Counted from the first letter of the stretch, positions 2,119 through 58,849 are shown. The stretch: DNA of 64,000 nt from Marispirochaeta sp. (GCA_963676835.2 CAXXFF010000002.1:1152001-1216000); one strand, 5' to 3'. Numbers and translations are program-made. Notes: generated by a model from the letters alone, not told the origin.

Positions 2119-2183
2119 GGCTTAATACTACAACAGCAGGTAATTACTTGTATATGCGGCTCCTTAGGTCTAATCTGACAGAT

Positions 2184-19765: not shown

Positions 19766-20169
19766 CGGCTGAGGTAAAAGGGCAGATAGTCTCCTGCGGT
19801 AATTTCCTCGCAATTCTCAATGGTCCAGTTGTACAGATAAGTCCAGCAGGACATTGGTTCACCTGCTTCGGTAAGCACTGGTATCTGACGTCTGATATAT
19901 TCATTGGGCTCACTGAAGCCGGTTCCGTATTCTTCGTATTTATCCAGCAGCGGCAGTGTTTCTTCCGGTTTCTTCAGCAGGTAGATCTCCCCCTTTATTC
20001 TGTATCCCTCGTCTGTTATAAGGGCTCCGGGAAAGCGGTCTATTTCATAAAGTCGGCCGGTAATCCATCCGGAGCCGAAATAGGCCGAATTTTCGGTAAT
20101 GTTCCTGCTGAATGGATTATTGAAACCCTTTCTCAGGGTGCCGTAGGTGAAAATGTAGTTCTGCTGCAT
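19753..20169 (-). CDS. Gamma-glutamylcyclotransferase (AIG2-like) family
   Basis: FTYGTLR, FPGA, GEIY, LDKYE, WTYLYN. Confidence 0.9.
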   Translation of the reverse strand: MQQNYIFTYGTLRKGFNNPFSRNITENSAYFGSGWITGRLYEIDRFPGALITDEGYRIKGEIYLLKKPEETLPLLDKYEEYGTGFSEPNEYIRRQIPVLTEAGEPMSCWTYLYNWTIENCEEITAGDYLPFYLSRYGT

Positions 20170-20454: not shown

Positions 20455-21237
20455 ATGGACGCCAGTGCATATATACCGGAACAGCCTTTCTGGGAGTTGT
20501 CAGCAGAGAATTTTGTCTCATGCTCGACTATGAACTCCGGTATACTGCTGCAGTACTACAGTTTCGATATGCCTGAAGATCAGGGAGCTTCACTTCTGGC
20601 TGTACCCGACGGTGTGGTTGACATTATCTTCCGCTGCTGCGGTTCCAATCCATGTGCACTGGTCTATGGTTCGGTTCTGAAAGGGAAAAAGATCACTTTT
20701 ATGAAAGGTGCAAAGTACTTCGGTGTCAGGTTTCTGCCCAGTGCAGCTGAACCGGTTCTCGGCAGCCCCCTGGACCAGTTTACCGACCAGAATGTACTTC
20801 TGAATGATATTCAGGATGGTGCAGATAAGCTTTTGGATCAGATCTATAATGCTGAAACCTTTCAGGACAGAGTGGGACACTTTGAGATGTACCACTACGA
20901 GAGGACCAGGAAGAGTAAGCCTGTTCCCGGCCTGGTTCATGAAGTTCTGCGTAAAATCAACTCTTCCCATGGCGATATCCGAATTCAGGCTCTGGCAGAT
21001 GAAACCGGATATTCCGCGCGGCACCTCAACAATATGTTTAAAAAACATGTGGGTGTTTCTCCCAAGTTTTACGAAAGGGTGGTTCGCTTTCAGCGCTGTC
21101 TGGATCAGCTGCGCAATCACCGCACCGGAGATCTTACCGAGCTTGCCTATGATGCGGGATACTATGATCAGGCCCACTTTATCAACGAGTTTAAAGAGTT
21201 TTCCATGAAAACTCCCACGCAGGTTCTCTGCGGCTGA
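20455..21237 (+). CDS. AraC-family regulator (DUF6597-type N-terminus)
   Basis: VPDGVVDIIF, GVRFLP, GVSPK..RVVRF, GYYDQAHFINEFK. Confidence 0.92.
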   Translation: MDASAYIPEQPFWELSAENFVSCSTMNSGILLQYYSFDMPEDQGASLLAVPDGVVDIIFRCCGSNPCALVYGSVLKGKKITFMKGAKYFGVRFLPSAAEPVLGSPLDQFTDQNVLLNDIQDGADKLLDQIYNAETFQDRVGHFEMYHYERTRKSKPVPGLVHEVLRKINSSHGDIRIQALADETGYSARHLNNMFKKHVGVSPKFYERVVRFQRCLDQLRNHRTGDLTELAYDAGYYDQAHFINEFKEFSMKTPTQVLCG

Positions 21238-21483
21238 ATTGATTCCCGACATTCCTTAACTTCTCATCTCTCATTGTAAAAATATACAATAAAATTCAAA
21301 ATATGCATTAAATATGTAAAAATAATATGCGAAAAATAAATAAATATGCAATTAGTTCCGTTTTTTCCAATTGGATTTAAAGTGAGTATGGTATTTACAT
21401 AGTAAGAAAGCCTTCTGCCTGAGTGCCACCAGGCCGTGGATAAATGCTTTCAATTTATTAATAGCGCTCGGAGGAGAAGCACT

Positions 21484-22872
21484 ATGAACGAACTGAAGAA
21501 AACCCTTGGGTTCTGGTCCTGCTTTGCAGTTGGAGTTGGACTGGTTGTAGCGTCAAGTACGCTCGTAACCCTTGGGCAGGGTATGGGAATGGCTGGTGCC
21601 GGATTTATTTTTGCCATGCTGGCGGCCTGGTTTCTACAGCTGTTTTCAGCCCAGAGTTTTGCAGAGCTTTCCTGTTCGATTCCAAAATCGGGCAGTTTGA
21701 GCTCCTACGCACGGATCGCAATCGGTCCTCTTGTTGGTATGGTCAGTCTGCTGACCGGTTATATTCTTATGAGTATGGCCACTGTTCCCGCGGAGCTGGC
21801 AGTAGCCGGCGCGGTGTTTAACGGAGTATTCGCCCCGTTCTTTTCACCATCACTCTTTGCACTCATTCTGCTGGTTGTGCTTACTATTCCCAACATCATC
21901 GGTGTTGATATGTTTGCCAAACTGCAGCTGGTCCTGACTTCCATCATGATCGTGTCCATGAGTGTTCTGGGACTTATCGGTCTGCTCGGCCTGGGTAATC
22001 CTGTTCCCGAGATTCCAAGTGCATCTTTCAACCCCATGGGATGGGGAGTCCTCGGACTGACTGCCCTTGCAATCTGGCTCTACATCGGTATCGAGTTTGT
22101 AACTCCCTTTGTTGAGGAGATCAAAGATCCTGCCAAGAATATCCCCAGTGCCATGGTTATGGGACTTGTGGTTATTATCGGTGTAAACCTTCTCTACGGA
22201 TTTGCCTCTATCCGGTATCTTCCCCTTGATGCTCTTGCAGAGTCTGATTCACCCCATGTTCTCGTGGCTGAAGCAATTCTCGGAAAAGCTGGTATGATCT
22301 GGATTGGTATCGTCTCTATTGCGGCGACTGCAAGTTCTGTAAATACCTTTATCGGTGTAATTCCCCGTATGCTCTACGGAATGGCCCAGGCTGGTGAAAT
22401 GCCTTCCTTCTTCGCCAAAATACATCCGAAGTTCAGAACACCTTATGTAGGTATCATTTTTACCGCAGCTGTATATGCTGCACTGCTGCTTGTTGGTATC
22501 GCCGGTATTGAACAGATCCTTATTCTGATCATGTCTGCCTGTGCCTGCTGGCTCCTTGCATACGTTCTTGCCCATGTTGTAGTAATCATCATGCGGAAGA
22601 AATACCCCGAGCTCAAACGCCCCTACAAGACTCCCCTGTATCCGCTGCCCCAGATTATCGGATCCCTGGGAATGCTGTACGCCATCTGGCAGATCTATCC
22701 TGAGCCCATCACCAAGATGACCATCTACTCTTATGCACTGGTGATGATCCTCATCGCGGTAGCTTTCTCTGCGGTATGGCTCAAGTTTGTAAAGAAGGTT
22801 CCCCTCTTTAAGCCGGTAAGTCTTGCTGAAGAGATGGGCGAAGAGTTCGCTAACGAACTTCTCGGGAAATAG
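21484..22872 (+). CDS. APC-family amino acid/amine permease
   Basis: 12 TM segments, FAEL, GIEF, EEIKDP, RMLYGMA, HPKFRTP, RPYKTP; SD GGAGGAG before ATG 21484. Confidence 0.93.
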   Translation: MNELKKTLGFWSCFAVGVGLVVASSTLVTLGQGMGMAGAGFIFAMLAAWFLQLFSAQSFAELSCSIPKSGSLSSYARIAIGPLVGMVSLLTGYILMSMATVPAELAVAGAVFNGVFAPFFSPSLFALILLVVLTIPNIIGVDMFAKLQLVLTSIMIVSMSVLGLIGLLGLGNPVPEIPSASFNPMGWGVLGLTALAIWLYIGIEFVTPFVEEIKDPAKNIPSAMVMGLVVIIGVNLLYGFASIRYLPLDALAESDSPHVLVAEAILGKAGMIWIGIVSIAATASSVNTFIGVIPRMLYGMAQAGEMPSFFAKIHPKFRTPYVGIIFTAAVYAALLLVGIAGIEQILILIMSACACWLLAYVLAHVVVIIMRKKYPELKRPYKTPLYPLPQIIGSLGMLYAIWQIYPEPITKMTIYSYALVMILIAVAFSAVWLKFVKKVPLFKPVSLAEEMGEEFANELLGK

Positions 22873-22874
22873 CT

Positions 22875-23459
22875 ATGAAATTGAGACAAAAGATCGATAA
22901 AGCAGCATCTGATCAGCTGGAAAGAATCCTGACCACCTTCCCCAAAAGCTGGGGAACAGCGGACAGGGGTGATGATCTGATGGAATACAGGTTTGATTCT
23001 TTTTCTGACGGAGCAGAGATGGCTGTGGCGTATGACGCAAAAAAGCAGCTTCTTGGCGGTGTCTTCTCCCTTGTTTTTACCTTGGGGTGTGCAAACACCT
23101 CAGGTGTAGAAAGTGGAAAAGCGAAGCTTCAGTATAAAGGCAGTTTCATTAAAGGTGATGCCTTTTTCTCCGCCGGAAAGAAATCAGACTCACTGCTCGC
23201 TGAGGCATTAAACAGCTACCCTGATTTAATGAAGATACTGAGCGAACTTGATCTTTTGTCCATGAATGTGTCCGCTGATAACGGCACACTGAAGGTTGAG
23301 CTCTCCCCGCTGGGGGGAGCTTACACCTACACGATCTTTCCTCCCATGAAATATGGGGGACTTCTGCCGGATACTGATCTTGAACGGATCCGGCAGGTAT
23401 TGAATATTTTCGCGGCTGGTTTTTCTGATAATGCCAGACGGGTTGCAGGAGCAGAATAA
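22875..23459 (+). CDS. DUF3156-like protein
   Basis: Size, position right after an APC permease, C-terminal L.PLGGA....FPP pattern; family assignment from recall. Confidence 0.5.
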   Translation: MKLRQKIDKAASDQLERILTTFPKSWGTADRGDDLMEYRFDSFSDGAEMAVAYDAKKQLLGGVFSLVFTLGCANTSGVESGKAKLQYKGSFIKGDAFFSAGKKSDSLLAEALNSYPDLMKILSELDLLSMNVSADNGTLKVELSPLGGAYTYTIFPPMKYGGLLPDTDLERIRQVLNIFAAGFSDNARRVAGAE

Positions 23460-24400
23460 TGAAGAAAGCAGGTTTGTTGCTACTTTTATTTACACTAAGT
23501 ATAACCCTTGTCTTTGCAGACAACAGCATACTGGTAGGCAGCGATCTCGGGGAGGTGATTCTCTGCTCGCCAAACCCCGGACGGGTCGCGGACTATCCGG
23601 AGATGCATGGAGACGCAATCTATGCATTGGGTGCCTCTCCGGATGGCAAAATTGCAGTTTCCGGCGATAAAGACGGAAACATGGTTATCTGGAATACCCA
23701 GACAAAAACAGGAACAGAAATCGCCCGCGCCCACCGCAGTACTATCCGGTCCATCGCTTTTTCCGCAGACGGATCATTCTTTGTAACCGGCGGAAAGGAC
23801 AGAATGGTATTTAAATGGGATTCCAGAACCGGTGCAAAGCTGGAAGAGTTTAAAGGGCATAAAAGCTATGTCTATGGGGTTGCGGTAAGTCCCGACGGCA
23901 GCCGGATAGCTTCAGTTGGTTCAGACAACCTGCTGATGCTCTGGGATGCCGATACAGGGCGGAAGCTCGAGAAGAAGCGGAATGCCCATTACAAGGCAAT
24001 CTATGCTGTTCAGTTTTCTACCGACGGACGACGTATTTTTACCGCCAGCGCGGATAATTTTATCCGCGTGTGGGATGCTGCCTCACTTGATAACATTACT
24101 ACCCTGGAAGGTCATGGAAATGAAGTGACAGCCATTGCTGTCAGTCCCGACGGAAAAATGCTGATCAGCGGAAGCAGGGATGAAAAGATTATTGTCTGGG
24201 ATACTGCTTCCCTGCAGCAGAAAAAGTCCATCAGTTTTCCGGGAAATATCTACACCGTGGGAATTGATTTTTCCAAAGACGGCAGTTATGCCTCTGTAGG
24301 CGACAGCTCGGGAACAGTGCTGGATCTTGATATGGGTACGCTTTCGGTTTCTCAGACAGCTGAAATTACCCCCATGAAATCCCTGATACGGCTCTGGTAG
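23459..24400 (+). CDS. Secreted WD40-repeat beta-propeller protein
   Basis: Signal peptide and about 6 GH...WD repeats (e.g. GHGNEVTAIAVSPDGKMLISGSRDEKIIVWD). Confidence 0.92.
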   Translation: MKKAGLLLLLFTLSITLVFADNSILVGSDLGEVILCSPNPGRVADYPEMHGDAIYALGASPDGKIAVSGDKDGNMVIWNTQTKTGTEIARAHRSTIRSIAFSADGSFFVTGGKDRMVFKWDSRTGAKLEEFKGHKSYVYGVAVSPDGSRIASVGSDNLLMLWDADTGRKLEKKRNAHYKAIYAVQFSTDGRRIFTASADNFIRVWDAASLDNITTLEGHGNEVTAIAVSPDGKMLISGSRDEKIIVWDTASLQQKKSISFPGNIYTVGIDFSKDGSYASVGDSSGTVLDLDMGTLSVSQTAEITPMKSLIRLW

Positions 24401-24421: not shown

Positions 24422-25063
24422 ATGAATTGGAATGAGCTTGCACCTAAAGTAAAGTTTTCTACCCTGGGCAGCGGGGCGGATCTTAAAAGCGAGTATCCAG
24501 ATTTTTCCGTATGGGAGTGGGGGACCGGTCGTTATGGAGAAATCCTGGGCGGAATGGAAACCGACATTAACGGTGGAAAAATAGTCGTTGCCGACTATGA
24601 GTACGAGTATTCCAAACAGATGCATGCCCCTAAAGATGTTGGTGGTATGCGCAGAGGGCTCACTTTCTGTATTCTCACTCATGAAGGTCTTTCTCTTCCC
24701 GAGATCTATCTTCGGAATGAAGCGCCGGTACAGAAGGTTTTCAAACGGGCCATGGGAAAACACGATATCTACTTTTCGGAAGATCCGGAATTCTCCGACC
24801 GTTTTGAGATTCAGGGACCGGAGCTGGAGGTTCATCAGCTTTTCCGTCCCGAGATCCGCAGCTATTTTCTCCGTTATTTTGAATACTCACCCTTGAGAAT
24901 GGAAGTAAAGAATAACGGGATTCTTCTTCACTTCGGCATGATGATACGCCCTGAGGACAGCAGAATGCTGATTTACAGTGCCGTCAATATTGCCAACTTC
25001 TGGATGGATCAGATTGTAAAATATGAGATTCCGCCGGAGGTCTTTTTTAAAGGCCAGATGTAG
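24422..25063 (+). CDS. Hypothetical protein
   Basis: SD AGGAG; EDPEFSDRFEI motif recalls DUF3137-like proteins (unverified). Confidence 0.65.
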   Translation: MNWNELAPKVKFSTLGSGADLKSEYPDFSVWEWGTGRYGEILGGMETDINGGKIVVADYEYEYSKQMHAPKDVGGMRRGLTFCILTHEGLSLPEIYLRNEAPVQKVFKRAMGKHDIYFSEDPEFSDRFEIQGPELEVHQLFRPEIRSYFLRYFEYSPLRMEVKNNGILLHFGMMIRPEDSRMLIYSAVNIANFWMDQIVKYEIPPEVFFKGQM

Positions 25064-25388: not shown

Positions 25389-26756
25389 ATGATAGCGGTT
25401 AAGGATCTTGAAGCCAAAAACGCACCCAGCCTTGAAACAATTAAAGAAGCACTTATTTCCAAAGGAATAGAGACAGTTCGTCTTGAGTATATCGATATGC
25501 AGGGAGTAAACCGCGGTAAGGTTCTTCCGATTGAAATGCTCGACGAGATTTTTGAAGACGGAATTGCATTTGCTGCGGCAATAATGCAGATCGGCTTTGA
25601 CAACAATGTTGCCGAAGTACAGGGTCTTTCCGGCAACTATGACGATATGAAGATTTTTGCCGACCCATCCAGGGTTTTTACACTTCCCTATCAGGAAAAA
25701 ACAGCCCTGATTCTGGGGGACAGTTACTACCATGGAAAGGCCATGAAACAGTCCCCCCGCTGGTTTCTGAAAAATGTAATAGCCGAATACAACAAGCTCG
25801 GGTATGAGCCCATTACAGCATCGGAAATGGAGTTCTTCCTCTTTAACAGAAATGAGGACGGATCTGTTTCTCCCTACACCAACGAAACCGGCAACTGCTA
25901 CACCAGCAATGTACGGATCGATCCCAAGGGTTTTTTCACCGAGCTGACCTCCACGCTGAAGCACATGGATTTCAATATTCTTTATATGAACCATGAGTTT
26001 TATGCAGGCCAGTATGAGTATAACTGGAGGCATTCCGATGCCCTGCGCTCAGCCGATGAGACCGCCATGTTCAAAGGTGTCTGTAAGGATATCGCAGAGC
26101 AGAAAAACATGATCGCCACCTTTATGGGCCGCCCGAAGAATGACAACGGCGGAAGCGGCTGCCATTTCCATCTGTCCCTGAATGATATCAGCACCGGCAA
26201 GAATATTTTTGACGATCCCGCCGGAGCAGAGGGCATGAGCGATGTAATGCGCCATTTTGTTGCAGGAGTACTGAAGCATGCACCTGCAATGGTTTCATTC
26301 CTTGCACCTACCATCAACTGCTACAAGCGCTTTCAGCCCAACTCATTTGCGCCGTTCTATATCGGCTGGGGCTATGACAACCGGACTACTTTTGTCCGTA
26401 TACCCGAAGAGCGGGGCAAAGCTACCCGTGTTGAAGTGCGTGCAGGCAGCGCTGCGGCCAACCCCTATCTTGCTCTCGCGTCAATTCTGGCAGCTGGTCT
26501 GGATGGTATAAAGAACAAGCTTGAGCCTCCAGCCATAGTAACCACCGACCTCTACAACGATGAGAGCCTTGAACGTACCACTGTTCCCAGAAGTCTCTTC
26601 CGTGCTCTCCGTGAGCTTGAGAGTGATGAATGGCTGAAGGAAATTGCCGGTGAGGCGCTTATCAACAACTTTGTAGCAGTCAAGGACATGGAAGTTGAGA
26701 CTTTCATCAATACTGTGCATCCCTGGGAATGGGATTTCTACTCGTACCATATTTAA
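25389..26756 (+). CDS. Glutamine synthetase-like gamma-glutamylamide synthetase (GmaS/GlnT/PuuA-like)
   Basis: GS fold (EMEFFL, HEFYAGQYE, GSGCHFHLS, NCYKR, DNRT, RVEVR, NPYL); lacks DGSS and has PNSFAP instead of PGYEAP. Confidence 0.85.
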   Translation: MIAVKDLEAKNAPSLETIKEALISKGIETVRLEYIDMQGVNRGKVLPIEMLDEIFEDGIAFAAAIMQIGFDNNVAEVQGLSGNYDDMKIFADPSRVFTLPYQEKTALILGDSYYHGKAMKQSPRWFLKNVIAEYNKLGYEPITASEMEFFLFNRNEDGSVSPYTNETGNCYTSNVRIDPKGFFTELTSTLKHMDFNILYMNHEFYAGQYEYNWRHSDALRSADETAMFKGVCKDIAEQKNMIATFMGRPKNDNGGSGCHFHLSLNDISTGKNIFDDPAGAEGMSDVMRHFVAGVLKHAPAMVSFLAPTINCYKRFQPNSFAPFYIGWGYDNRTTFVRIPEERGKATRVEVRAGSAAANPYLALASILAAGLDGIKNKLEPPAIVTTDLYNDESLERTTVPRSLFRALRELESDEWLKEIAGEALINNFVAVKDMEVETFINTVHPWEWDFYSYHI

Positions 26757-26786
26757 CGGCACACCAGAAGAAGGAGACTTGAAACT

Positions 26787-27686
26787 ATGTGCGGAATAGC
26801 CGGAATCATGACCCGGGAGGGTATGGTTGTTTCTGAAAAGCTGCTGGACATGCTGGACCTGATTCAGCACCGCGGCCCCGATGCAGCGGGCATTGCATAT
26901 TTCTCAAAAGGTGCGGCAACGGATGTTCGTATTTCCTATACCGGCGAAGGCAAAAAACAGGAACTTCTTGAAGTCCTGGGAATGCTCTGCGCCTACACGG
27001 TGAAAAACGAGTTTACCAGCGGCCCGAAATACGGCTTTATTGAAGCTGATATTATCCCCAACGCCGGGAATTCCCTGAAAGATATTCACCGGGAAATCAA
27101 TCTGCGTGAAGGACTGTATGTTCACTCCATCGGTTCCGATCTGAGTGTTTACAAGGATGGCGGTACGGTAAAGCGTCTCCGTGATGTTCACGCGATTCAT
27201 GCCGGAACTGCAACCCATGGTATCGGTCATGTCCGTATGGCAACTGAGAGTGCGGAAGATATTAATGCCGCACACCCCTTTGTTTCTCCGTTTTTTCCGG
27301 AACTGGCAATGGTGCATAACGGTCAGTTTACCAACTACTTCAACCTGAGGCGCTCTCTTGAAACAAAGGGTGCAATCTTCAAAACCCAGAATGACTCTGA
27401 GGTTGCAAGTCACCTGATTGCATGGGCAATGCAGGAAAATGGAGGCGATCTCGAAGCGGCTCTGAACTATGCCCTTGAAGAGCTTGACGGTGTCTTCTGT
27501 ATTATGGCCGCCACTGAAAATCAGATGGGGATTGTTAAGGACAAGCTGGGTATCAAGCCTCTTCTTTTGTTTGAAAAAGACGGTGCCACCCTGCTTGGTT
27601 CCGAGCAGATTGAGTTTACCACCCTGTTCCCGGATGTATATGCCGAGGAGCTGGAGCCCGGTGAGGTGAGAGTATGGAATTTATAA
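26787..27686 (+). CDS. glxB: Class II glutamine amidotransferase, GlxB/MgsA-like
   Basis: MCGIAG, HRGPDAAG, GHVRMATES, AHPF, HNG, NDSEV. Confidence 0.8.
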   Translation: MCGIAGIMTREGMVVSEKLLDMLDLIQHRGPDAAGIAYFSKGAATDVRISYTGEGKKQELLEVLGMLCAYTVKNEFTSGPKYGFIEADIIPNAGNSLKDIHREINLREGLYVHSIGSDLSVYKDGGTVKRLRDVHAIHAGTATHGIGHVRMATESAEDINAAHPFVSPFFPELAMVHNGQFTNYFNLRRSLETKGAIFKTQNDSEVASHLIAWAMQENGGDLEAALNYALEELDGVFCIMAATENQMGIVKDKLGIKPLLLFEKDGATLLGSEQIEFTTLFPDVYAEELEPGEVRVWNL

Positions 27687-28402
27687 ACGCCGAAGGCATG
27701 GACGGGAAGGACCTTAATACAGAGCTTAAAAAGCTCCTGTCTTCCACCAAAGAGATAACCGTCAATCACTCTCATTCCATGCACAACATCGGTACCGGAA
27801 TGACCGAAGAAGGTACAGTGATTGTGGACGGCAGTACCGGATTTTATGTTGGCGGTTTTCTCGAAGGAACCCGCATTGATGTTTTAGGTAATGCCGGATG
27901 GTATGCCGGAGACAACATGATGGGCGGCGAGCTTATTATCCGTAAAAATTCCGGCTGTAATGCCGGAGCCTATATGGGCGGCGGAACCCTGGTTATCTAC
28001 GGCGGAGCAGGCAGCCGACCCGGATACGGTATGAAAGGCGGCACCCTGCTGATCTGCGGAGATGCAGGACGCTGGGCAGGGCAGATGACTCTGGGAGGAC
28101 AGCTGATCATCCTTGGAAAGGTTGCTCCCGGTATCGGTGAGTCCATGTACAAGGGCGTTATCTATGTCGGTGATCCCGATGTGGAGAATAAGCTTGGAAG
28201 CAACTGCTTTGTAGATGAACTGACTGCGGATGAAAAGATCAGTCTTGCGGAACTGTTTGCCAAGTATGAGGTTGAAGCAGATCCTGCGTCACTCAAGGCT
28301 ATTCGCCCGTTGACTTCCGGACGTCATAACTATGTTCTTTTCAGTCCGGAACTTGAGCCGGAAAAGGCAATGAAACATCTCGCAGGGAGTGGAGCAAAAT
28401 GA
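27674..28402 (+). CDS. glxC: GXGXG-repeat glutamate synthase domain protein, GlxC/MgsB-like
   Basis: Repeated G..G...G..M.GG beta-helix. Confidence 0.8.
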   Translation: MEFINAEGMDGKDLNTELKKLLSSTKEITVNHSHSMHNIGTGMTEEGTVIVDGSTGFYVGGFLEGTRIDVLGNAGWYAGDNMMGGELIIRKNSGCNAGAYMGGGTLVIYGGAGSRPGYGMKGGTLLICGDAGRWAGQMTLGGQLIILGKVAPGIGESMYKGVIYVGDPDVENKLGSNCFVDELTADEKISLAELFAKYEVEADPASLKAIRPLTSGRHNYVLFSPELEPEKAMKHLAGSGAK

Positions 28403-29709
28403 GTACTGCTGCGGAAAAACCAACAGAAACAAAGAAAAAGGCTATGGGTAAGGACGTCCAGCGGGGCGTCTGGAATGCGGAAACCATGGCGGAGATCAGG
28501 TACAAGGCCGAAAACGGCAATCACCGGATAAGAGGCTGCGGTGCGACCCGTGCCCTGCCGACTTTCGATGATCTAACAATTCTTCCCGGTCAGATGACCA
28601 GGATGACCATTGATACCTACCGGGAGAAATGCGACACCCGGACGGTTCTTGGAAAGAGAGCCAAACGGCCGCTGGTGATAGAGACTCCCATAATGATTGC
28701 GGGAATCTCCTACGGTGCCCTGAGCAAGGAAGCCAAGATTGCCATGGCCAAGGCCACAATGAAGACCGGTACGGTTATCAGTAACGGTGAAGGCGGCCTG
28801 CTGCCTGAAGAGCTTGCCAACTCCTACCGGCAGTCCATCCAGGTTCTGCCCAGCCGTTTCGGATTCAGCAAACGTAATATTGAAGTTGCGGATATGCTTG
28901 AGTATCTGGTCGGCATCGGTGCGAAGCCGGGACTTTCCGGTCACCTTATGGGAGCAAAGATCTCCCAGGAAGTAGGCGATTTCCGCCAGCTTCCCCCGGG
29001 TATCGATCTGCACAGCCATCCCCGTCACGGAGACGCCTTCGGAGCGGATGACATGATGGTAAAGATGGATCAGCTCCGGGAGTTGACCAACGGCGAAGTA
29101 CCCATTTTTCTGAAACTTGCTGCTGCCAGGGTCAAGGACGATATAAAGATTGCTGTAAAGGTCGGCGTGGACGGAATTATCCTGGACGGTATGCAGGGCG
29201 GAACCGGTGCTGCACCGGTAATGGCCTCCGAGCATCTTGGTATTCCCACCATGCCTGCTCTGGTTCAGGCGGTACAGACCCTGGAAGAGATGGGAGTCAA
29301 GGACGAAGTCAGCCTTATCGTATCCGGAGGAATCCGCAACGGTGCGGATTTGGCGAAATCTCTGGCTATCGGTGCGGATGCTGTTGCCATCGGTACAGGT
29401 GCCATGGTTGCCATGGGCTGTAACGTCTGTCTCCGCTGTCAGGCCGGTCAGTGTGCCTTCGGAATCGGTACCCAGGATCCGGAACTTCGTAAACGGCTGG
29501 ATATAGAAGAGGCCAGTGAACGGGTTGCCAACTATATCAAGGGAATGACTGCAGAAGCCATAGTGCTTGCCAAGGCGGCAGGAAAAACCAAGCTGAAAAA
29601 CCTGGAAAGGGAAGACCTCCGCGCACTGACTCTTGAGTCGTGTGCAATGACCGGGATCCCCCTTGCAGGATCAAACTACACCTTCGGAACACCCTTCGGA
29701 TTCTGTTAG
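28399..29709 (+). CDS. glxD: FMN-binding glutamate synthase family subunit, GlxD/MgsC-like
   Basis: IRG.GA.R.LP.FDDL, YREKC, YGALS, GAKPG, DGMQGGTGA, C-x5-C-x4-C [3Fe-4S], TQDPELR. Confidence 0.85.
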   Translation: MSTAAEKPTETKKKAMGKDVQRGVWNAETMAEIRYKAENGNHRIRGCGATRALPTFDDLTILPGQMTRMTIDTYREKCDTRTVLGKRAKRPLVIETPIMIAGISYGALSKEAKIAMAKATMKTGTVISNGEGGLLPEELANSYRQSIQVLPSRFGFSKRNIEVADMLEYLVGIGAKPGLSGHLMGAKISQEVGDFRQLPPGIDLHSHPRHGDAFGADDMMVKMDQLRELTNGEVPIFLKLAAARVKDDIKIAVKVGVDGIILDGMQGGTGAAPVMASEHLGIPTMPALVQAVQTLEEMGVKDEVSLIVSGGIRNGADLAKSLAIGADAVAIGTGAMVAMGCNVCLRCQAGQCAFGIGTQDPELRKRLDIEEASERVANYIKGMTAEAIVLAKAAGKTKLKNLEREDLRALTLESCAMTGIPLAGSNYTFGTPFGFC

Positions 29710-29718
29710 GAGTTTGCC

Positions 29719-30060
29719 ATGAGAATCGAGAACCACCCAATTCTCGGGGACTTTGAAAAAGGCCCCGAGGTGGAATTCATCTATAACGGAAAGCCCATGA
29801 AAGGTTTTGCCGGGGAACCAATCGCCGCCGCGCTGCGTGCGGCGGGTGTCATGAAACACCGGGTTACCTCCCGCAAACATAAACCCAGGGGTATTTTCTG
29901 TGCCATCGGGCGCTGTACTGACTGTGTGATGGTGGTTAACGGAAAAGCCAATATCAGAACCTGCGTTACTCCCCTTGAAGCGGGGATGGTCGTGGAAACC
30001 CAGTACGGAACTCTGCCTGCATCGGAAGCTGCAGTGGAAACAGCGGGGGCTGCAAAATGA
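29719..30060 (+). CDS. [2Fe-2S] subunit (HcnA/PdhF/SoxA N-terminal-like)
   Basis: GEPIAAAL, RGIFCAIGRCTDC, RTCVT. Confidence 0.9.
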   Translation: MRIENHPILGDFEKGPEVEFIYNGKPMKGFAGEPIAAALRAAGVMKHRVTSRKHKPRGIFCAIGRCTDCVMVVNGKANIRTCVTPLEAGMVVETQYGTLPASEAAVETAGAAK

Positions 30061-31670
30061 GACGCATAGGTTTAGCCGTGGTCGGAGCCGGTCCCGCCGG
30101 TCTCTCTGCGGCTATAGAGGCGGCCCGTCATGGAGTTGATGTTGTCGTATTCGACGAAAACATGAAGCCCGGCGGACAGCTTTTTAAACAGATTCATAAA
30201 TTTTTCGGCTCCAAGGAGCATCGTGCCAAGGAGCGCGGATTCCGCATAGGTGAAGACCTTTTAAAAGAAGCCGAATCCCTGAATGTCAAGGTTGAACTTA
30301 ACTCTATTGTAACCGGCATCTATGAGGGCCTTGAGCTTGTGGTTACCAAAGGCGAAACGGTGGAGCATATCCGTGCCAACGGTATCGTGATCGCCACCGG
30401 CGCCAGTGAGAATATGATTCCCTTTCCCGGATGGACCCTTCCCGGAGTTATCGGGGCCGGGGCTGCACAGACCATGGCAAACCTTCATGGTGTAAAACCC
30501 GGAAACAATGTCCTCATGGTAGGTTCCGGTAACGTAGGCGTTGTTGTCGGCCTGCAGCTGCTTCAGGCGGGATGCTCTCTGGAAGCCCTGATTGATGCTT
30601 CTCCCCGGGTTGGCGGATACGGCGTTCATGCTGCAAAGATTGCCCGGACCGGCGTTCCCTTCTATCTGCGCCACACCATCAAAGAGGTATACGGCGAGGA
30701 GTCCGTGGAAGGTGCTGTGATCGTTGAAGTTGATGAGAAATGGCAGCCCATTCCAGGCAGCGAGAAAGACCTTAAGGTCGATACGGTCTGTATGGCTGTA
30801 GGGCTTTCTCCCATGTATCAGCTGAGCAAGATTGCCGGCTGTGAAATAGTCGAAGACCCGAAAAAAGGCGGTTTTGTACCCAAGTGCGATCTGTACGGTG
30901 CAACCACTGTGCCCGGCATATGGGTTGCAGGTGATGTTGCCGGGATAGAAGAGGCAAGTTCCGCCATGATCGGCGGTAAGATTGCCGGTGCGGCTGCTGC
31001 GGAAAAGCAGGGATACCTGGAAGAGGCCGAGTTTCTCTCCCGGGTGGAATCCTTTAATGCCAGTCTGGGGCAGCTCAGGGAAGGACAGTTCGGCCATAAG
31101 ATGAAGGGCAAGCCTGTTACCCATACAGAAGAGGGTATCGAGCTTTCCGGATCACTCTTGAGCCGCGGCTATGTGGCGGACGAAGAAATTACCCGTTTCC
31201 CCGGTGTGCCTGATGAAAAGAAAAGAGCCCGGGGGCTTACTCCGGTTATTGAATGTACCCAGAATATTCCCTGCGACCCCTGCCGGGATGCCTGTTCCAA
31301 GGGCTGTATCCGTATCAGCAGCAACATTGTTGATCTTCCCAGCCTTCAGGAGGAAGTGGTCTGTACCGGCTGCGGCATGTGTGTTGCCGCCTGTCCCGGG
31401 CAGGCAATCTTTCTGGTGGATGAGACCTACAACGAAGAGGAAGCCCTGGTGGGAATCCCCTATGAGTTTCTCCCCCTTCCCGAAGCAGGTGACACAGGAG
31501 CAGTGTTCGACCGTTCCGGAACACCGGTAGGTACCGGAAAGGTGGTGCGGGTGCAGAAAGCAAAGGTTATGGACGGAACCTCGGTTCTCTGGATTGCGGT
31601 ACCGAAATCCCAGTCCATGACCGCCAGATTCTACAAGCCCCTCACATCGTTAGTTAAGGCAGAGGTTTAA
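30057..31670 (+). CDS. FAD/NAD(P)-dependent oxidoreductase alpha subunit fused to a [4Fe-4S] ferredoxin domain
   Basis: GAGPAG, GGQL.KQ.HKFFG, ATGA, GWTLPGV, AGD; CTQNIPCDPCRDAC and CTGCGMCVAACP. Confidence 0.88.
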   Translation: MRRIGLAVVGAGPAGLSAAIEAARHGVDVVVFDENMKPGGQLFKQIHKFFGSKEHRAKERGFRIGEDLLKEAESLNVKVELNSIVTGIYEGLELVVTKGETVEHIRANGIVIATGASENMIPFPGWTLPGVIGAGAAQTMANLHGVKPGNNVLMVGSGNVGVVVGLQLLQAGCSLEALIDASPRVGGYGVHAAKIARTGVPFYLRHTIKEVYGEESVEGAVIVEVDEKWQPIPGSEKDLKVDTVCMAVGLSPMYQLSKIAGCEIVEDPKKGGFVPKCDLYGATTVPGIWVAGDVAGIEEASSAMIGGKIAGAAAAEKQGYLEEAEFLSRVESFNASLGQLREGQFGHKMKGKPVTHTEEGIELSGSLLSRGYVADEEITRFPGVPDEKKRARGLTPVIECTQNIPCDPCRDACSKGCIRISSNIVDLPSLQEEVVCTGCGMCVAACPGQAIFLVDETYNEEEALVGIPYEFLPLPEAGDTGAVFDRSGTPVGTGKVVRVQKAKVMDGTSVLWIAVPKSQSMTARFYKPLTSLVKAEV

Positions 31671-31671
31671 T

Positions 31672-32004
31672 ATGGCAAAAAAAAACAGACGTGTACGTGC
31701 CTCCGGAGAATATATTCCCCGGGATGATGATGAACTGATTCTCTGCCGCTGCGAAGAGATAACCCGGGGGGATATCCGCCGGGCAATCCATGCGGGGCTG
31801 CGGACCATGAACGAAATAAAGCGGGAAACCCGGTCGGGAATGGGACTCTGCCAGGGCCAGACCTGCACCAAGATTATCCGCGGCTTTATAGCATCAGAAC
31901 TGAAATGTTCCCCTTCGGAGATTGGTCTCCCCACTCCCCGGACTCCGGCCCGTCCGATTCCCATGACAGTACTGGCCGCGGACGGAATGGGCAAGGAGAG
32001 ATAG
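31672..32004 (+). CDS. BFD-like [2Fe-2S] small subunit
   Basis: CRCEEIT, TRSGMGLCQGQTC, R.PARP. Confidence 0.9.
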   Translation: MAKKNRRVRASGEYIPRDDDELILCRCEEITRGDIRRAIHAGLRTMNEIKRETRSGMGLCQGQTCTKIIRGFIASELKCSPSEIGLPTPRTPARPIPMTVLAADGMGKER

Positions 32005-32006
32005 AC

Positions 32007-33131
32007 GTGAGTAATTCAGCAGAGGTTATTGTACTCGGCGGCGGTGTAATCGGCTGCGCCATTGCATACAACCTGATTAAAAGAGGGGTTAAGCCCCTGG
32101 TTATAGAGAAAGACGAGATTGGTACGGCAGCATCCAGCAGGAACGGAGGCGGTGTCCGCCAGTCTGCCCGGGACCCCCGGGAACTTCCCCTTGCCATGTA
32201 TGCGGTTCAGAATATCTGGCCGGGACTTTCCGATGAGCTTGGCAGTGATGTTGAATACTGTCAGGGAGGAAACCTCCGTCTTGGAAAGACTGAAGCGCAT
32301 GTGAAATTCCTTGAGAACATGGTGGAAACACAGACAAAAGAGGGACTCGAGCTTGAAATGCTGGATAATGACCAGGTTCGGGAGATTCTTCCCTACGCCT
32401 CGGAGTCCATTATCGGCGCAAGCTGGTGTCCCACCGATGGTCACGGCAACCCCATGCTCACCACTCTGGCTTATTATAAAAAGGCTCTGGAGCTTGGTGC
32501 GGAGTTTATTGTCGGGGAAACAGCCCTGGAAGTAACCATGAAGAAAGGCCGGGTAACCGGAGTCCGTACTGATCAGGATATCTATGAAGCCCCGGTTGTG
32601 GTTAATGCCGCAGGAGTGGGTGCTAGGGACATAGCCCGCAGCGTGGGACTTGATATTCCCATGCAGCCCCGTCTTGTTGAATGTCTGGTAACCGACCAGC
32701 AGCCCCATATCTTTGACCAGATGCTCGGGACCGCCGGAGCGGACTTTTACGGGCATCAGAGCAAGCATGGTTCCTTCGTCTTCGGCGGAATGACCGGCTG
32801 GGAGCCCTATGAACTGAAAGACCTTAACAGTATCACCACCAGCAACACCGCCCCGTGCTGCTCCCGGGCGATTCTGGACTACTTTCCCTGGATGGAAAGA
32901 TCCAATGTTGTACGGGCCTGGTCGGGTTTTCTGGCGGTGGTTGCAGATATGGTGCCGGTAATGGGCAAGGTTCCTGAAGTACCGGGATTTGTATTCGCCT
33001 CCTGTTTCTGCGGCCACGGCTACGGGATTTCCCCTGCAGTGGGCCAGCTGATAGCGGAGCTGATTGTGGACGATGAGCCGGAACTTCCTCTGGATGAGTT
33101 CCGCTTTGACCGGTTCCTGCCGAGAAACTGA
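32007..33131 (+). CDS. FAD-dependent oxidoreductase beta subunit (SoxB/DadA/PdhB-like)
   Basis: GGGVIG, ASSRNGGGVR, GHGYGISPAVG; GTG start after SD AAGGAG. Confidence 0.9.
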   Translation: MSNSAEVIVLGGGVIGCAIAYNLIKRGVKPLVIEKDEIGTAASSRNGGGVRQSARDPRELPLAMYAVQNIWPGLSDELGSDVEYCQGGNLRLGKTEAHVKFLENMVETQTKEGLELEMLDNDQVREILPYASESIIGASWCPTDGHGNPMLTTLAYYKKALELGAEFIVGETALEVTMKKGRVTGVRTDQDIYEAPVVVNAAGVGARDIARSVGLDIPMQPRLVECLVTDQQPHIFDQMLGTAGADFYGHQSKHGSFVFGGMTGWEPYELKDLNSITTSNTAPCCSRAILDYFPWMERSNVVRAWSGFLAVVADMVPVMGKVPEVPGFVFASCFCGHGYGISPAVGQLIAELIVDDEPELPLDEFRFDRFLPRN

Positions 33132-33202
33132 TACACCGGATTCATTTCCCCGGAAGGATTCCTTCCGGGGAATTAATACTTTAAAGCGAATGGGAGAATT
33201 AA

Positions 33203-33604
33203 ATGGATTATAAGCGGGAAAATTTTTCATCAGGATCACCTCTGGAAGAGAAGCTCGGCTACAGCCGTGTGGTAAAAGCCGGACCTTTTATATTTGTGGG
33301 CGGAACAACTTCCGTTCAGGCCGACGGAACTGTTTACGGTGAAGGAAGCATGTACGAGCAGTGCAAGTTTATCTTCGAGAAGATGATCAAATGTCTTGAA
33401 GATGCCGGTGGAAAAAAGGAAGAGGTTGTTCGGGTAAAGATGTACCTTACCGATATGTCTCTGGCAAAGGAAGCGATTCAGGCTTACTCGGAATTCTTTA
33501 AAGAGATTAAGCCCCTGAATACTGCTGTAGGAATCGACACCCTGTTTCGTCCTGCCCAGCTTGCCGAGATTGAGATGGACGCCATTCAGGGCGCTGTCTG
33601 CTGA
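33203..33604 (+). CDS. RidA/YjgF-family protein
   Basis: GYSRVV, GTT, EIEMDA. Confidence 0.88.
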   Translation: MDYKRENFSSGSPLEEKLGYSRVVKAGPFIFVGGTTSVQADGTVYGEGSMYEQCKFIFEKMIKCLEDAGGKKEEVVRVKMYLTDMSLAKEAIQAYSEFFKEIKPLNTAVGIDTLFRPAQLAEIEMDAIQGAVC

Positions 33605-33649: not shown

Positions 33650-33682
33650 TGGATACGGAACCTTGGTTCCGTATCCATTTTT
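33650..33682 (+). terminator. Intrinsic terminator between convergent genes
   Basis: TGGATACGGAACC-TT-GGTTCCGTATCCA + T5. Confidence 0.85.
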
Positions 33683-33685
33683 ATA

Positions 33686-34012
33686 TTAATCAGTAACTAC
33701 GTTATACTTTGTTACCTCTATGACTGCCATTCGCCCGGGTCCTGAAGTTGTCTCTGTAAGTATCCCGATAACCTCTATTATCCCTTTGCCTTGCTGTTTA
33801 CGTAACTCCGACGATAGCTCTCCCTGCAGTTTATAAACAGTACCGTTATTGAGAGTAAGAGCGGGAAAGGTAAATGGCTCTGATCCTTTAACACTGAGGG
33901 TGCCTGCAACTGTAATTACATCCCCCGCTGTTGGCTCCAGCTGTTCATGTTGTCCGAATGCAAAAAGCGAAACCGAGAAAAGGAGCAGGCTGAACTGTAA
34001 TAGACCCCGCAT
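33686..34012 (-). CDS. Hypothetical exported protein
   Basis: Signal peptide LFAFGQHE; coupled to upstream gene. Confidence 0.7.
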   Translation of the reverse strand: MRGLLQFSLLLFSVSLFAFGQHEQLEPTAGDVITVAGTLSVKGSEPFTFPALTLNNGTVYKLQGELSSELRKQQGKGIIEVIGILTETTSGPGRMAVIEVTKYNVVTD

Positions 34013-35775
34013 TATTTAATAACCATCGTCATGCGTGTTCCTTGAGGAACGTTTACGTTCCATGAATAAGTACCGGTTGATGGTGCGGATCCTGCATAAC
34101 AGTAGATATTGGACTGGGCAAGAGAGTTGTAATATCCAACGTATCCGGAGTCATCGTAGAAATATGGTCCGTCATAGTTGTCACTGGAATAATGATAGTT
34201 ATTGAAATCGATGGAACCCAACTGGTAGGTAATGCTGTTCAAGGCGGATTCTTCCCAGCTTGACCCAATGTTGTAGTGAAGATCTGTTCCGCTTAAGGAG
34301 CTATCATCATCGGAAAGCACTACTGCTACTCCCCACTTTATCAGCAGACTTTCCATGGTTTCTGCTGGACTGCCTGTGTCGGTTATTGCAGAGAGCAATG
34401 CCTGTGAGTCTATACTGGAATTCTGTACCATTGACCGAAACAAATCCGCCCCGCCGAAATTCCTGGCAAGATAAGCTCCGAACGAGTATGCATGGGAATA
34501 GCTGATTAAATCATCAAGAAGCCCCCACTGAGTAAGGGATGCTTCGTTCCAGTAGTTATACAGCGGGAGCCGTCCTGATATGACGCCGGTAGTTCCACCA
34601 TCGGATGGATCATCATAGGCGATGCCCCTCGGGCCGTCAGCGCTTATTTTATTGGCTACAAAATCTTCGGTAACCAGGGAGCACATTTCATTTAGCCAGG
34701 TATCTGTAGGTTCGACATTATTAAGTTCCTGTTTCTGGTAGAAATGAATCATATGCTGGAATTCGTGGGCCAGGGTAGAGATACACTCCTGGGGCCAGTA
34801 GTCGGTAATCTCCCATGTGCTGTCGTCTTTTTCGGCTAATAAAGATGAATCCAGGCTGAAGCGGATACACTCGTCTGAATCTGCGTAGGTTTCGGCAGTG
34901 TAATTATGCAGAGCATAGAAATAGCCTACGATGCGGGATTCGTTTTGGCCGGGTACCCCGTCACCCTCAATGTCGTGGAGAAAAATAACGATGGTATCTG
35001 TTTCACCTATCATAACCGGATTTCCTGTGTTTCCCCACTCTTCTCCGTATATACCGGTTACCCAGTCATAGATATCGTTGTCTAAACCTGCTGTCAGGAA
35101 GGCATTGCAGAGGGCATCCACCATTTCCTGGGTAATGCCCGAGGAGCCCCATTCCTCGTCTTCAACCCACACCTCCAGGGTCTTTGCTCCGAATGTTGTA
35201 TCACTGCTGCCCAACTCTACAAGTCCCCTGAGGGTGGCGGGGACGGCAGTTTCTATCACATCGTCCTGAAGAGTATTTGTATCTCCAATTGCGCTTGCAG
35301 AGATAGTTACCGGATTGGTGTAGATGCTGCTGCTGAAGTTACTAACAGATTTTTTAACTGAGCTCATGAAATCTTTATACTTTTCATCCAGTTTGCTGGA
35401 TCCGCGGAGAGCAATAATTCCATCATTTTCAGTGCTCTTTTTATTCGAGGCAGAGTCTATACTCTGAATACTGCTGTTCAGTGGTGATCCTGAACTTTGA
35501 GATATATATGGCCGTGAACTCAGGTTGTAATCCGAGTAATTGGTAAAGATAAAGTAAATATCGTCTCCGGCTTGGATCGATGAGTTTGTATAGGTATAAG
35601 ATCCGGTATCAGTTAAAGTTTCTACTGTATAGTTGGTTCCAGCAGAAATTGATATGGATGAGTCTGGATCCGGAATATTCAGAGACTCTCCACCGCCTCC
35701 CCCACCGCTTGGACAAGCGCTCAGCAGCAGTAGTACAGTAATAACAGAGAAAAACTGTAAATAAATTTTTTTCAC
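34012..35775 (-). CDS. Peptidase M30-like zinc metalloprotease lipoprotein
   Basis: Lipobox LLSAC; STLAHEFQHMIHF and WLNEMCS motifs; acidic. Confidence 0.8.
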   Translation of the reverse strand: MKKIYLQFFSVITVLLLLSACPSGGGGGGESLNIPDPDSSISISAGTNYTVETLTDTGSYTYTNSSIQAGDDIYFIFTNYSDYNLSSRPYISQSSGSPLNSSIQSIDSASNKKSTENDGIIALRGSSKLDEKYKDFMSSVKKSVSNFSSSIYTNPVTISASAIGDTNTLQDDVIETAVPATLRGLVELGSSDTTFGAKTLEVWVEDEEWGSSGITQEMVDALCNAFLTAGLDNDIYDWVTGIYGEEWGNTGNPVMIGETDTIVIFLHDIEGDGVPGQNESRIVGYFYALHNYTAETYADSDECIRFSLDSSLLAEKDDSTWEITDYWPQECISTLAHEFQHMIHFYQKQELNNVEPTDTWLNEMCSLVTEDFVANKISADGPRGIAYDDPSDGGTTGVISGRLPLYNYWNEASLTQWGLLDDLISYSHAYSFGAYLARNFGGADLFRSMVQNSSIDSQALLSAITDTGSPAETMESLLIKWGVAVVLSDDDSSLSGTDLHYNIGSSWEESALNSITYQLGSIDFNNYHYSSDNYDGPYFYDDSGYVGYYNSLAQSNIYCYAGSAPSTGTYSWNVNVPQGTRMTMVIK

Positions 35776-58839: not shown

Positions 58840-58849
58840 TTGAACAAGT

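Follow-up and report, generated by a model that had tools for sequence, protein, structure and literature searches.

Nine genes in a stretch of Marispirochaeta sp. DNA (GCA_963676835.2 CAXXFF010000002.1:1152001-1216000; its full 64,000 nucleotides are referred to as the window) appear to encode a route, independent of both O2 and folate, that would convert an amine, 2-oxoglutarate and ATP into glutamate and an aldehyde. From the gene content, synteny, phylogeny, active-site changes and module swaps reported here we put the probability of this reading at roughly 0.7, with its chemistry, cleavage side, electron recycling and substrate as predictions. In the proposed scheme an APC/DUF3156 system would import a primary amine, probably not methylamine, which a glutamine synthetase (GS)-like ligase would join to glutamate at the expense of ATP, giving a gamma-glutamyl-amine. 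GlxB would then free the amine and GlxD, with its flavin mononucleotide (FMN) and [3Fe-4S] cluster, would couple it reductively (gamma-glutamyl-amine + 2-oxoglutarate + 2 electrons to glutamate + N-alkyl-glutamate, an opine-like compound). Finally, a flavin adenine dinucleotide (FAD)/Fe-S dehydrogenase would oxidise the alkyl C-N bond of the N-alkyl-glutamate to yield glutamate, a free aldehyde and two electrons. The net reaction would be an ATP-driven transamination, redox-neutral if the ferredoxin domain of the dehydrogenase returned the electrons to GlxD. The operon is best described as a conserved uncharacterised variant that lies outside the N-methylglutamate pathway proper and probably operates along similar lines.

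The nine open reading frames are co-oriented on the + strand and fill positions 25389-33604 with intergenic gaps of -13 to +71 bases. Such a tight run had been described in an initial annotation of this DNA, and its coordinates and close spacing were borne out, as was every domain call. Pfam returned, in operon order, Gln-synt_C; GATase_6; GXGXG; Glu_synthase; Fer2_4; Pyr_redox_2 with Fer4; Fer2_BFD/SO_alpha_A3; DAO; and Ribonuc_L-PSP. The features are:

25389-26756, +, predicted GS-like gamma-glutamyl-amine ligase of a clade of its own (below all NCBIfam cut-offs, flap changes, tree tests)
26787-27686, +, GlxB/MgsA-like class II amidotransferase (Pfam; 30-32% to MgsA)
27674-28402, +, GlxC/MgsB-like GXGXG subunit (Pfam; 29-33% to MgsB)
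28399-29709, +, GlxD/MgsC-like FMN/[3Fe-4S] subunit without an N-terminal ferredoxin (46-49% to MgsC; motifs, tree and tree tests)
29719-30060, +, [2Fe-2S] subunit, OdhC/HcnA-like (Fer2_4)
30057-31670, +, FAD alpha subunit (537 aa) bearing a fused ferredoxin-like domain in which 8 Cys are invariant (Pfam; no GcvT domain)
31672-32004, +, BFD-like [2Fe-2S]/SO_alpha_A3 subunit (Pfam)
32007-33131, +, FAD catalytic beta subunit, DAO family (best PDB match 1y56_B)
33203-33604, +, Rid4-7-type member of the Rid family, lacking the arginine of RidA (below the TIGR00004 cut-off; motif alignment)
33650-33677, +, terminator-like hairpin of 12 pairs and a T-run 3' of the operon, which it closes

The beta subunit most likely starts at the GTG at 32007, 2 bases past the BFD stop. 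The hairpin is assigned by its position, as the 18 terminator-like sites of the region are not in excess of the shuffle mean (15.3); a promoter scan of the region gave no signal exceeding chance.

Related loci, 35 in all and with GlxD identities of 66-98%, were available for comparison from the Bacillota, the Desulfobacterota and the Archaeoglobi. The [2Fe-2S] gene lies 3' of GlxD in 32 of them (one is cut 2 bases past GlxD and two have another module), and the ligase lies 5' in 30, the five misses having less than 1.7 kb upstream. A beta gene is present in 26, the others being truncated (7) or having it replaced (2), and 18 show the Rid gene. Even draws added loci of the operon clade from 3 of 350 further Desulfobacterota (one duplicates a locus of the set), from 3 of another 400 Bacillota (78-79% identity) and from 1 of another 95 genomes of the Archaeoglobi class. 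All six bacterial loci from these draws retain ligase, GlxBCD and dehydrogenase; the archaeal contig ends within GlxC. In two evenly drawn Bacillota (L133, L134) a permease, DUF3156, WD40 and class I amidotransferase gene stand right before the same nine genes. The synteny of synthase and dehydrogenase genes on which the initial proposal depended is thus retained in anaerobes, in 32/35 loci and in the six evenly drawn bacteria.

The operon occurs in ∼1% of the sampled Bacillota and Desulfobacterota genomes, gut-type genera included. Cultured carriers are Fusibacter paucivorans DSM 12116 and, by their proteins, Desulfoscipio gibsoniae and Clostridium beijerinckii, and some databases label relatives "methylamine-glutamate N-methyltransferase subunit C". 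The nearest relative locus has a 98% identical GlxD. No GlxD above 39% was found in 400 other Spirochaetota drawn, and only 2 of 6 genomes of the genus carry the operon, which is accessory there. Horizontal gain would be the simple reading.

Relatives with exchanged modules bear on the mechanism. Where the Fe-S dehydrogenase would be expected, four clusters from five loci (L027, L136/L155, L137 and L138) have instead an NAD-opine dehydrogenase (PF02317) together with an acylating aldehyde dehydrogenase and a bacterial microcompartment (BMC) shell; all four contain GlxBCD, the GS-like ligase is visible in three, and L136 and L137 add PTAC and acetate kinase. In L028 the same slot holds AOR and a GlcD/F-like pair. 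Two unrelated secondary-amine dehydrogenases in one slot, each followed by an aldehyde sink, are the best support for an opine-like intermediate that is cut to an aldehyde. In Desulfobacterota the window-type dehydrogenase genes are interleaved with shell genes and followed by an aldehyde dehydrogenase, so that in these sulfate reducers the same genes would act inside a microcompartment; BMC-H genes were found at 10 of the 35 loci. The free-aldehyde route of the initial annotation therefore finds its aldehyde-consuming enzymes in sister loci, and it is from these neighbours that the alkyl-side cut is predicted. In the spirochaete, the route probably serves nitrogen scavenging, with the aldehyde reduced or excreted.

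The PF02317 microcompartment loci (L136:8867-19973, L137:64-13912, L138:521-11642 and L027:6874-17403) deserve mention in their own right. In two of the four there is, besides PTAC and acetate kinase, another GltB2 gene, which bears a ferredoxin. They may represent an uncatalogued BMC type, as no PF02317 row is present in the accessible part of the 2021 catalogue table (PMC8217296).

The front end can be exchanged as well. A permease search of 251 Desulfovibrionales genomes yielded three loci (L149, L150 and L151) that have in common with the operon an AraC regulator (47-49%), a Rid protein (48-53%), a permease (52-55%), DUF3156 and the [2Fe-2S]/alpha/BFD/beta genes. Within the 20 kb fetched, TynB, a protein of the OCD/mu-crystallin fold that passes the NF004848 "tyramine oxidase subunit B" cut-off, stands in place of ligase and GlxBCD, and the betas of these loci nest within the operon beta clade. 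The permease and DUF3156 genes of L149 and L151 flank a PII gene, and L149 also encodes an aspartase-family lyase. The 4.7-kb contig of L111 bears TynB along with the Rid, AraC and permease genes. TynB (NF004848) is absent from all 35 loci, and no OCD-family gene of the genome exceeds its cut-off. We infer that TynB reduces the imine of amine and oxo-acid in one step, a job that ligase and GlxBCD would do with ATP. The PF02317 replacement, together with a beta clade that works without a ligase in the TynB loci, points to an N-substituted amino acid, not a gamma-amide, as the intermediate. A wider generalisation, less likely than not, is that strict anaerobes might degrade biogenic arylalkylamines (tyramine, phenylethylamine, dopamine) by an undescribed O2-free condense-then-oxidise route, in which either ligase/GlxBCD or TynB, as an imine reductase, builds an N-substituted amino acid and a ferredoxin-bearing dehydrogenase oxidises it and recycles the electrons, in effect a self-contained transaminase driven by ATP. 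Irrespective of the operon, L149:3382-13675, L150 and L151:1192-11662 are, by their gene content, a candidate anaerobic monoamine route.

The swaps also speak to a Puu/Pau/GlnA4-type protected oxidation, in which the ligase caps a single amino group on a polyamine or ethanolamine, the dehydrogenase oxidises it, an amidase removes the glutamate and GlxBCD recycles nitrogen in the manner of a glutamate synthase (GOGAT). GS-like enzymes are reported to glutamylate polyamines and ethanolamine (PMC9397018), the second-best NCBIfam match of the operon permease is the ethanolamine permease, far below its cut-off, and a class I amidotransferase neighbours 5 of the 35 loci as well as L133 and L134, with GGACT at 4 of 35. 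We nevertheless consider this scheme unlikely: most loci, the window included, lack the amidase, whereas GlxBCD is always present, the beta subunit is only 23% identical to PuuB, and both the NAD-opine dehydrogenase swap and the ligase-free TynB loci imply an N-substituted amino acid.

The ligase fell below the NCBIfam cut-offs of GlnA, GmaS and PuuA, GmaS being the top-scoring model (355 bits with TIGR03105 against a cut-off of 470 and a Rhizobium control of 686; 314 bits with the GlnA model TIGR00653 against 429). Compared with the GmaS structure 7cql it scored 189 versus 633 bits, and the HEDAN and TWAP motifs of GmaS read HEFYA and SFAP. The metal and ATP motifs are retained, the flap PGYEAP has become PNSFAP and DGSS has become AAAI. 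The flap residue is Phe in 30/30 operon ligases, Trp in 3/3 GmaS and Glu in 5/5 GlnA rows (as GYEAP/GFEAP in four). The flap Glu and the Asp of DGSS are involved in ammonium handling by GS, and the ligase thus appears to have lost its ammonium-site residues. In the ligase tree, from which the partial L017 and the GlnA3, GlnA4 and Csal-type ligases were left out, it nests among Bacillota and one Desulfobacter sequence. Its nearest reference, on a long branch (support 91-94), is a Streptomyces canus GS-like gene that adjoins genes for a P450 and a 3,4-dihydroxyphenylacetate dioxygenase. A PDB search with PuuA for the motifs of other GS-like ligases returned true GS only at the threshold used. 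Forced groupings of the ligase as a GmaS orthologue and as GlnA were rejected (approximately unbiased [AU] test on 25 rows, p 0.002 and 0.0003). On sequence grounds the ligase is a clade of its own, neither GlnA nor GmaS. The altered ammonium site agrees with the amine-glutamylating enzyme initially proposed; orthology to GmaS is not supported.

GlxB retains the Cys2, HVRMATES, HNG and DSE motifs. GlxD is 46-49% identical to MgsC from three reference loci bearing gmaS, soxBDAG and purU, and like MgsC it has an LPS(R) motif and no Lys ahead of GAKPG: it reads LVGIGAKPG where GOGAT has KxxQGAKPG, and RHGDAFGADDM where GltB has HHDIYSIEDL. A quick tree of 37 rows (16 of the 35 loci, three MgsC references, no biochemically proven archaeal GltB2) placed GlxD with MgsC (support 98), a grouping that the AU test did not reject (p 0.17), in agreement with the kinship first suggested for this subunit. 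Alternative groupings were rejected: GlxD with ferredoxin-type GltB2 trios (p 0.0004), with ferredoxin-type GltB2 plus canonical GltB, and with a second archaeal trio. As a canonical or ferredoxin-type glutamate synthase subunit it failed by clade, by motif and by AU test (p 0.0004 and 0.00003). MgsABC is proposed to transfer the amine of gamma-glutamylmethylamide to 2-oxoglutarate, with a reductant described as unknown in the source (PMC6237917). The operon has no GltD. An N-terminal ferredoxin is present on GlxD in only 2/35 loci, both of which lack the Fe-S dehydrogenase, suggesting that elsewhere the alpha ferredoxin domain feeds GlxD. A complex prediction of GlxD with this domain (score 0.00 against a mark of 0.32, without folded controls) is no evidence either way. 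A second GlxBCD-like trio, without a GS-like gene and basal to the MgsC group, was seen in an Archaeoglobi genome (L090:5469-8507).

We find it very improbable that the operon simply assimilates ammonia through an ordinary split GS/GOGAT, for which the Fe-S/flavin genes would supply the reductase and, besides it, an unrelated imino-acid (proline) dehydrogenase. The ammonium-site changes in all 30 ligases, the rejection of GlxD as sister of GOGAT-type subunits, the patchy occurrence in the genus and the BMC and aldehyde dehydrogenase partners all argue against it. The genome also carries a separate GSIII and canonical GltB and GltD for ammonia assimilation. Such a role could draw on the lack of glnA, on type I GS as the best PDB matches of the ligase, on the alpha subunit being a Pyr_redox protein with weak GltD matches and on a beta subunit closest to proline dehydrogenase. 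Both glnA and glnE are missing inside a contig, at a site with GSIII on one side and a 574-aa membrane gene on the other (genome contig C1 925650-925806, outside the window); glnA is present in the nearest relative, alongside the operon, and in four other genomes of the genus.

The dehydrogenase has the adjacent [2Fe-2S] subunit, FAD alpha subunit with BFD-type Cys motif and DAO-family FAD beta subunit typical of OdhABC, HcnABC and the dye-linked proline dehydrogenase. As initially claimed, it lacks a GcvT domain and a gamma subunit: Pfam found no GCV_T domain in the 537-aa alpha, and GcvT and SoxG are absent from 35/35 loci. The genome's only GCV_T match is a 384-aa frame elsewhere, a stand-alone GcvT. 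In Desulfobacterota the ferredoxin part of alpha is a separate gene of ∼167 aa. The top PDB match of beta is 1y56_B, the archaeal proline dehydrogenase chain (169 bits versus 96 for SoxB); beta itself is 24-25% identical to SoxB and 25-26% to the single FAD oxidoreductase of aerobic TynB loci, and a tree covering 11 of the 35 loci unites it with TynB-locus and MIC6 betas. Plasmid sequences matched the dehydrogenase at 32-38% at best and are unnamed. The flavin OdhABC family acts on secondary amines, and one of its members is reported to oxidise nopaline, an N-substituted glutamate (PMC4575208). This precedent, and the lack of an aldehyde dehydrogenase in the window operon, would fit a storage or detoxification role, with N-alkyl-glutamate as the product (an osmolyte or amine sink) from which the dehydrogenase later releases amine and 2-oxoglutarate in the manner of an opine dehydrogenase. 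Such a role is hardly credible given the aldehyde dehydrogenase, AOR, BMC, PII, ammonium transporter and glutamate dehydrogenase neighbours, which point to catabolism and nitrogen capture.

In the Rid protein the PAR of RidA reads PLN, and the arginine is absent from 21/21 aligned relatives and present in the genome's own RidA. We take the protein to be of the Rid6 type from its motif. Arg105 is described as the criterion for imine hydrolysis by RidA, and Rids without it had no imine hydrolase activity where tested (PMC4433059). The initial suggestion of a RidA that clears imines thus fails on the missing arginine; the protein also scores below the TIGR00004 cut-off.

Upstream of the nine genes lie five more that should be considered with them:

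20455-21237, +, AraC-family protein with DUF6597 that probably regulates the unit (Pfam; relatives at 47-54% adjoin the same permease and Rid in L111 and L149-L152)
21436-22872, +, APC amine/amino-acid permease (Pfam; sister to TynB-linked permeases)
22875-23459, +, DUF3156 protein, usual partner of the permease family (Pfam; adjoins the permease in L028, L112, L114, L115, L133, L134, L149-L152 and L160)
23459-24400, +, WD40 beta-propeller with hydrophobic N-terminus, putative accessory protein (Pfam; equivalent position in L112, L133, L134 and L152)
24422-25063, +, hypothetical 213-aa protein (no Pfam match; present in L003 only among the 35 loci)

In an atlas search the 213-aa protein matched unnamed clusters; DUF3137/DUF3156-like ones, at 0.88-0.89, are a weak lead only. 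Most 1-kb bins flanking the region are 69-84% identical to the nearest relative, compared with 84-94% for those of 21-34 kb. Judged from this, the conserved unit probably starts with the AraC gene at 20455, not at 25389, and ends with the Rid gene. The initial operon span therefore stands for the nine genes and probably not for the start.

A divergent GGACT gene at 19753-20169 (-), next to the AraC gene, might recycle gamma-glutamyl-amines; its 78% identity in the nearest relative matches the flanks and not the unit, and it was excluded. Unrelated GGACT genes follow Rid in L008, L035 and L036. On the other side, a gene resembling M30 peptidase lipoproteins and another for a small exported protein (33686-35775, -) converge on the operon terminator and are unmatched in the nearest relative's adjacent DNA. 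Elsewhere in the window we noted by eye a carboxynorspermidine decarboxylase-like gene of polyamine synthesis (2076-3365, +), a metallo-beta-lactamase-fold protein with two cyclic-nucleotide-binding domains (38005-40137, -), a LarA/lactate racemase-family protein (49869-51236, +) and a SNF2-family helicase, after which comes a gene whose C-terminal part resembles XPB (57619-61636, -).

The permease offers a lead to the substrate. Its matches at E<1e-70 in 401 Bacillota genomes number three, all from operon genomes, and it is sister to the TynB-locus permeases of Desulfovibrionales (support 99). More distant permease and DUF3156 pairs (∼30% identity) occur in Salmonella, where phenylacetaldehyde dehydrogenase is the neighbour, and in Pantoea, where hpa genes are. 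If the route is right, an arylalkylamine such as tyramine, phenylethylamine or dopamine has about even odds of being the substrate. Ethylamine, ethanolamine or another short amine is a more doubtful candidate, and methylamine has a slim chance, as have all other amines together. Conversion of ethanolamine to glycolate is a minor option, from AOR and GlcD/F in L028 and gcvP near L092, which are single loci with GlcD far below its cut-off.

A true methylamine (N-methylglutamate) pathway releasing free formaldehyde could claim the grouping of GlxD with MgsC, GmaS as the top NCBIfam model for the ligase and the database MgsC labels. We regard it as distinctly improbable. The ligase is not GmaS by bit score or AU test, and SoxA C-terminus, SoxG, SoxD, PurU and FolD matches were found in 0/35 related loci; purU and folD are linked in 3/3 N-methylglutamate reference loci and the genome here has both away from the operon. 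Transport and regulator genes are held in common with the TynB loci. Moreover, one operon genome has a separate GmaS-scoring ligase and MttB, which suggests that the operon serves an amine other than methylamine. Together these points favour the initial suggestion that the amine may be one other than methylamine. The genome in question, of the Desulfobacterales, carries at L094:5327-14213 and L109:1341-3563 what looks like an anaerobic cluster of the methylamine type, with a GlxB, a fused GlxC-D, a GltD-like subunit, MttB, a corrinoid protein, a methyltransferase and the GmaS-scoring ligase.

Several observations weigh against the O2- and folate-independent route or its parts. The 35 loci include many close relatives of one another, and the trees were quick ones or had few references. 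The window operon has no aldehyde dehydrogenase, and the genome, 97% complete, has no BMC, AOR, MttB or OCD-family gene exceeding its cut-off. Nopaline is formed from 2-oxoglutarate and arginine and OdhABC presumably cuts its oxo-acid side; by analogy, cleavage on that side would turn the present route into a futile cycle. The closest solved beta structure is, by sequence match, an archaeal proline dehydrogenase, and the class I amidotransferase and GGACT neighbours would fit a Puu/Pau-type route equally. The loss of glnA-glnE is the sole point for a housekeeping role of the ligase. Electron recycling is weakened by L138, in which neither the dehydrogenase nor a ferredoxin on GlxD is found, and by L151, where a ferredoxin-type alpha occurs without GlxD. 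Against an aromatic amine, the enterobacterial permeases are only ∼30% identical, the permeases and Rids of aerobic TynB loci are different ones (22-25%), PTAC and acetate kinase in the 52% clade point to short aldehydes, L007 and L014 have different permeases, and BMC loci have ABC or TRAP transporters.

Known routes of monoamine use mostly need O2 (amine oxidases), quinone cofactors or pyridoxal phosphate transaminases. If the proposed route is true, it would be an ATP-pulled, oxygen-free alternative. It may also offer a new biocatalyst for N-alkyl-glutamates beyond N-methylglutamate and a direct test of MIC6 organelle function. Should the wider condense-then-oxidise reading be true, the MIC6 microcompartment would gain the signature pathway that it lacks, TynB a mechanism, and Arg-less Rid and DUF3156 proteins a context. 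The literature searched on the pathway in anaerobes, the dehydrogenase family and TynAB, most subscription papers lying outside the search, contained no description of the operon. In its architecture the operon recombines parts that are already known, and the two-way module swaps ground the mechanism well and name substrates to test.

Like the N-methylglutamate pathway (Rhizobium etli L038, Sphingobium L039, Acidithiobacillus L047), the operon combines a GS-like ligase, a split GlxBCD and a flavin dehydrogenase for an N-substituted glutamate. It has the MgsABC-type trio and lacks GmaS, a GcvT-type MgdABCD and linked purU/folD: its ligase belongs to another clade, its dehydrogenase is without GcvT, SoxG and SoxD, and it occurs in strict anaerobes with an amine permease, DUF3156 and an Arg-less Rid. 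The dehydrogenase presumably resembles the four-subunit PDH2 of Thermococcus. With OdhABC, HcnABC and the dye-linked L-proline dehydrogenase (1y56) it shares the [2Fe-2S], FAD alpha and FAD beta subunits and the Cys motifs given in PMC4575208. Unlike OdhABC/HcnABC, it has an extra ferredoxin domain, a split-off BFD part, linked substrate-making enzymes and a predicted alkyl-side cut.

The Desulfobacterota relatives have features of MIC6, namely PF04324 and PF01266 with a ∼30-aa 4-Cys C-terminal extension, an N-terminally extended aldehyde dehydrogenase, PduT and two BMC-Tdp. The 4-Cys beta tail is described for MIC6, which is given without a signature enzyme (Sutter et al., 2021, PMC8217296), and the accessible part of its Pfam table (supplementary file 4) has no PF01645, PF01493, PF13522 or PF13510 row. 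Unlike MIC6, the window operon has no shell genes; these and the aldehyde dehydrogenase are present in the relatives L016/L091, L023/L092 and L128.

The operon's AraC, Rid, permease and DUF3156 genes and its dehydrogenase clade recur in the Desulfovibrionales TynB loci, and its permease and DUF3156 recur in enterobacterial loci such as the Salmonella tyramine locus. TynAB loci differ in having neither GS-like ligase nor GlxBCD, and in aerobes a single FAD oxidoreductase is used. TynAB reportedly acts on tyramine and dopamine in P. putida U, and the oxidoreductase of L160 is presumably SEN2971/STM3128. The latter is described as a tyramine oxidoreductase in Salmonella (PMC8070173), and the tyramine assignment of TynAB is mentioned at the level of annotation (PMC10850344). 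Finally, PuuA, PauA and GlnA3/GlnA4 resemble the operon ligase in ATP-dependent capping of amines by a GS-like enzyme without a Glu flap. In those routes the cap is hydrolysed off after oxidation, whereas here a GOGAT-like trio is always present.

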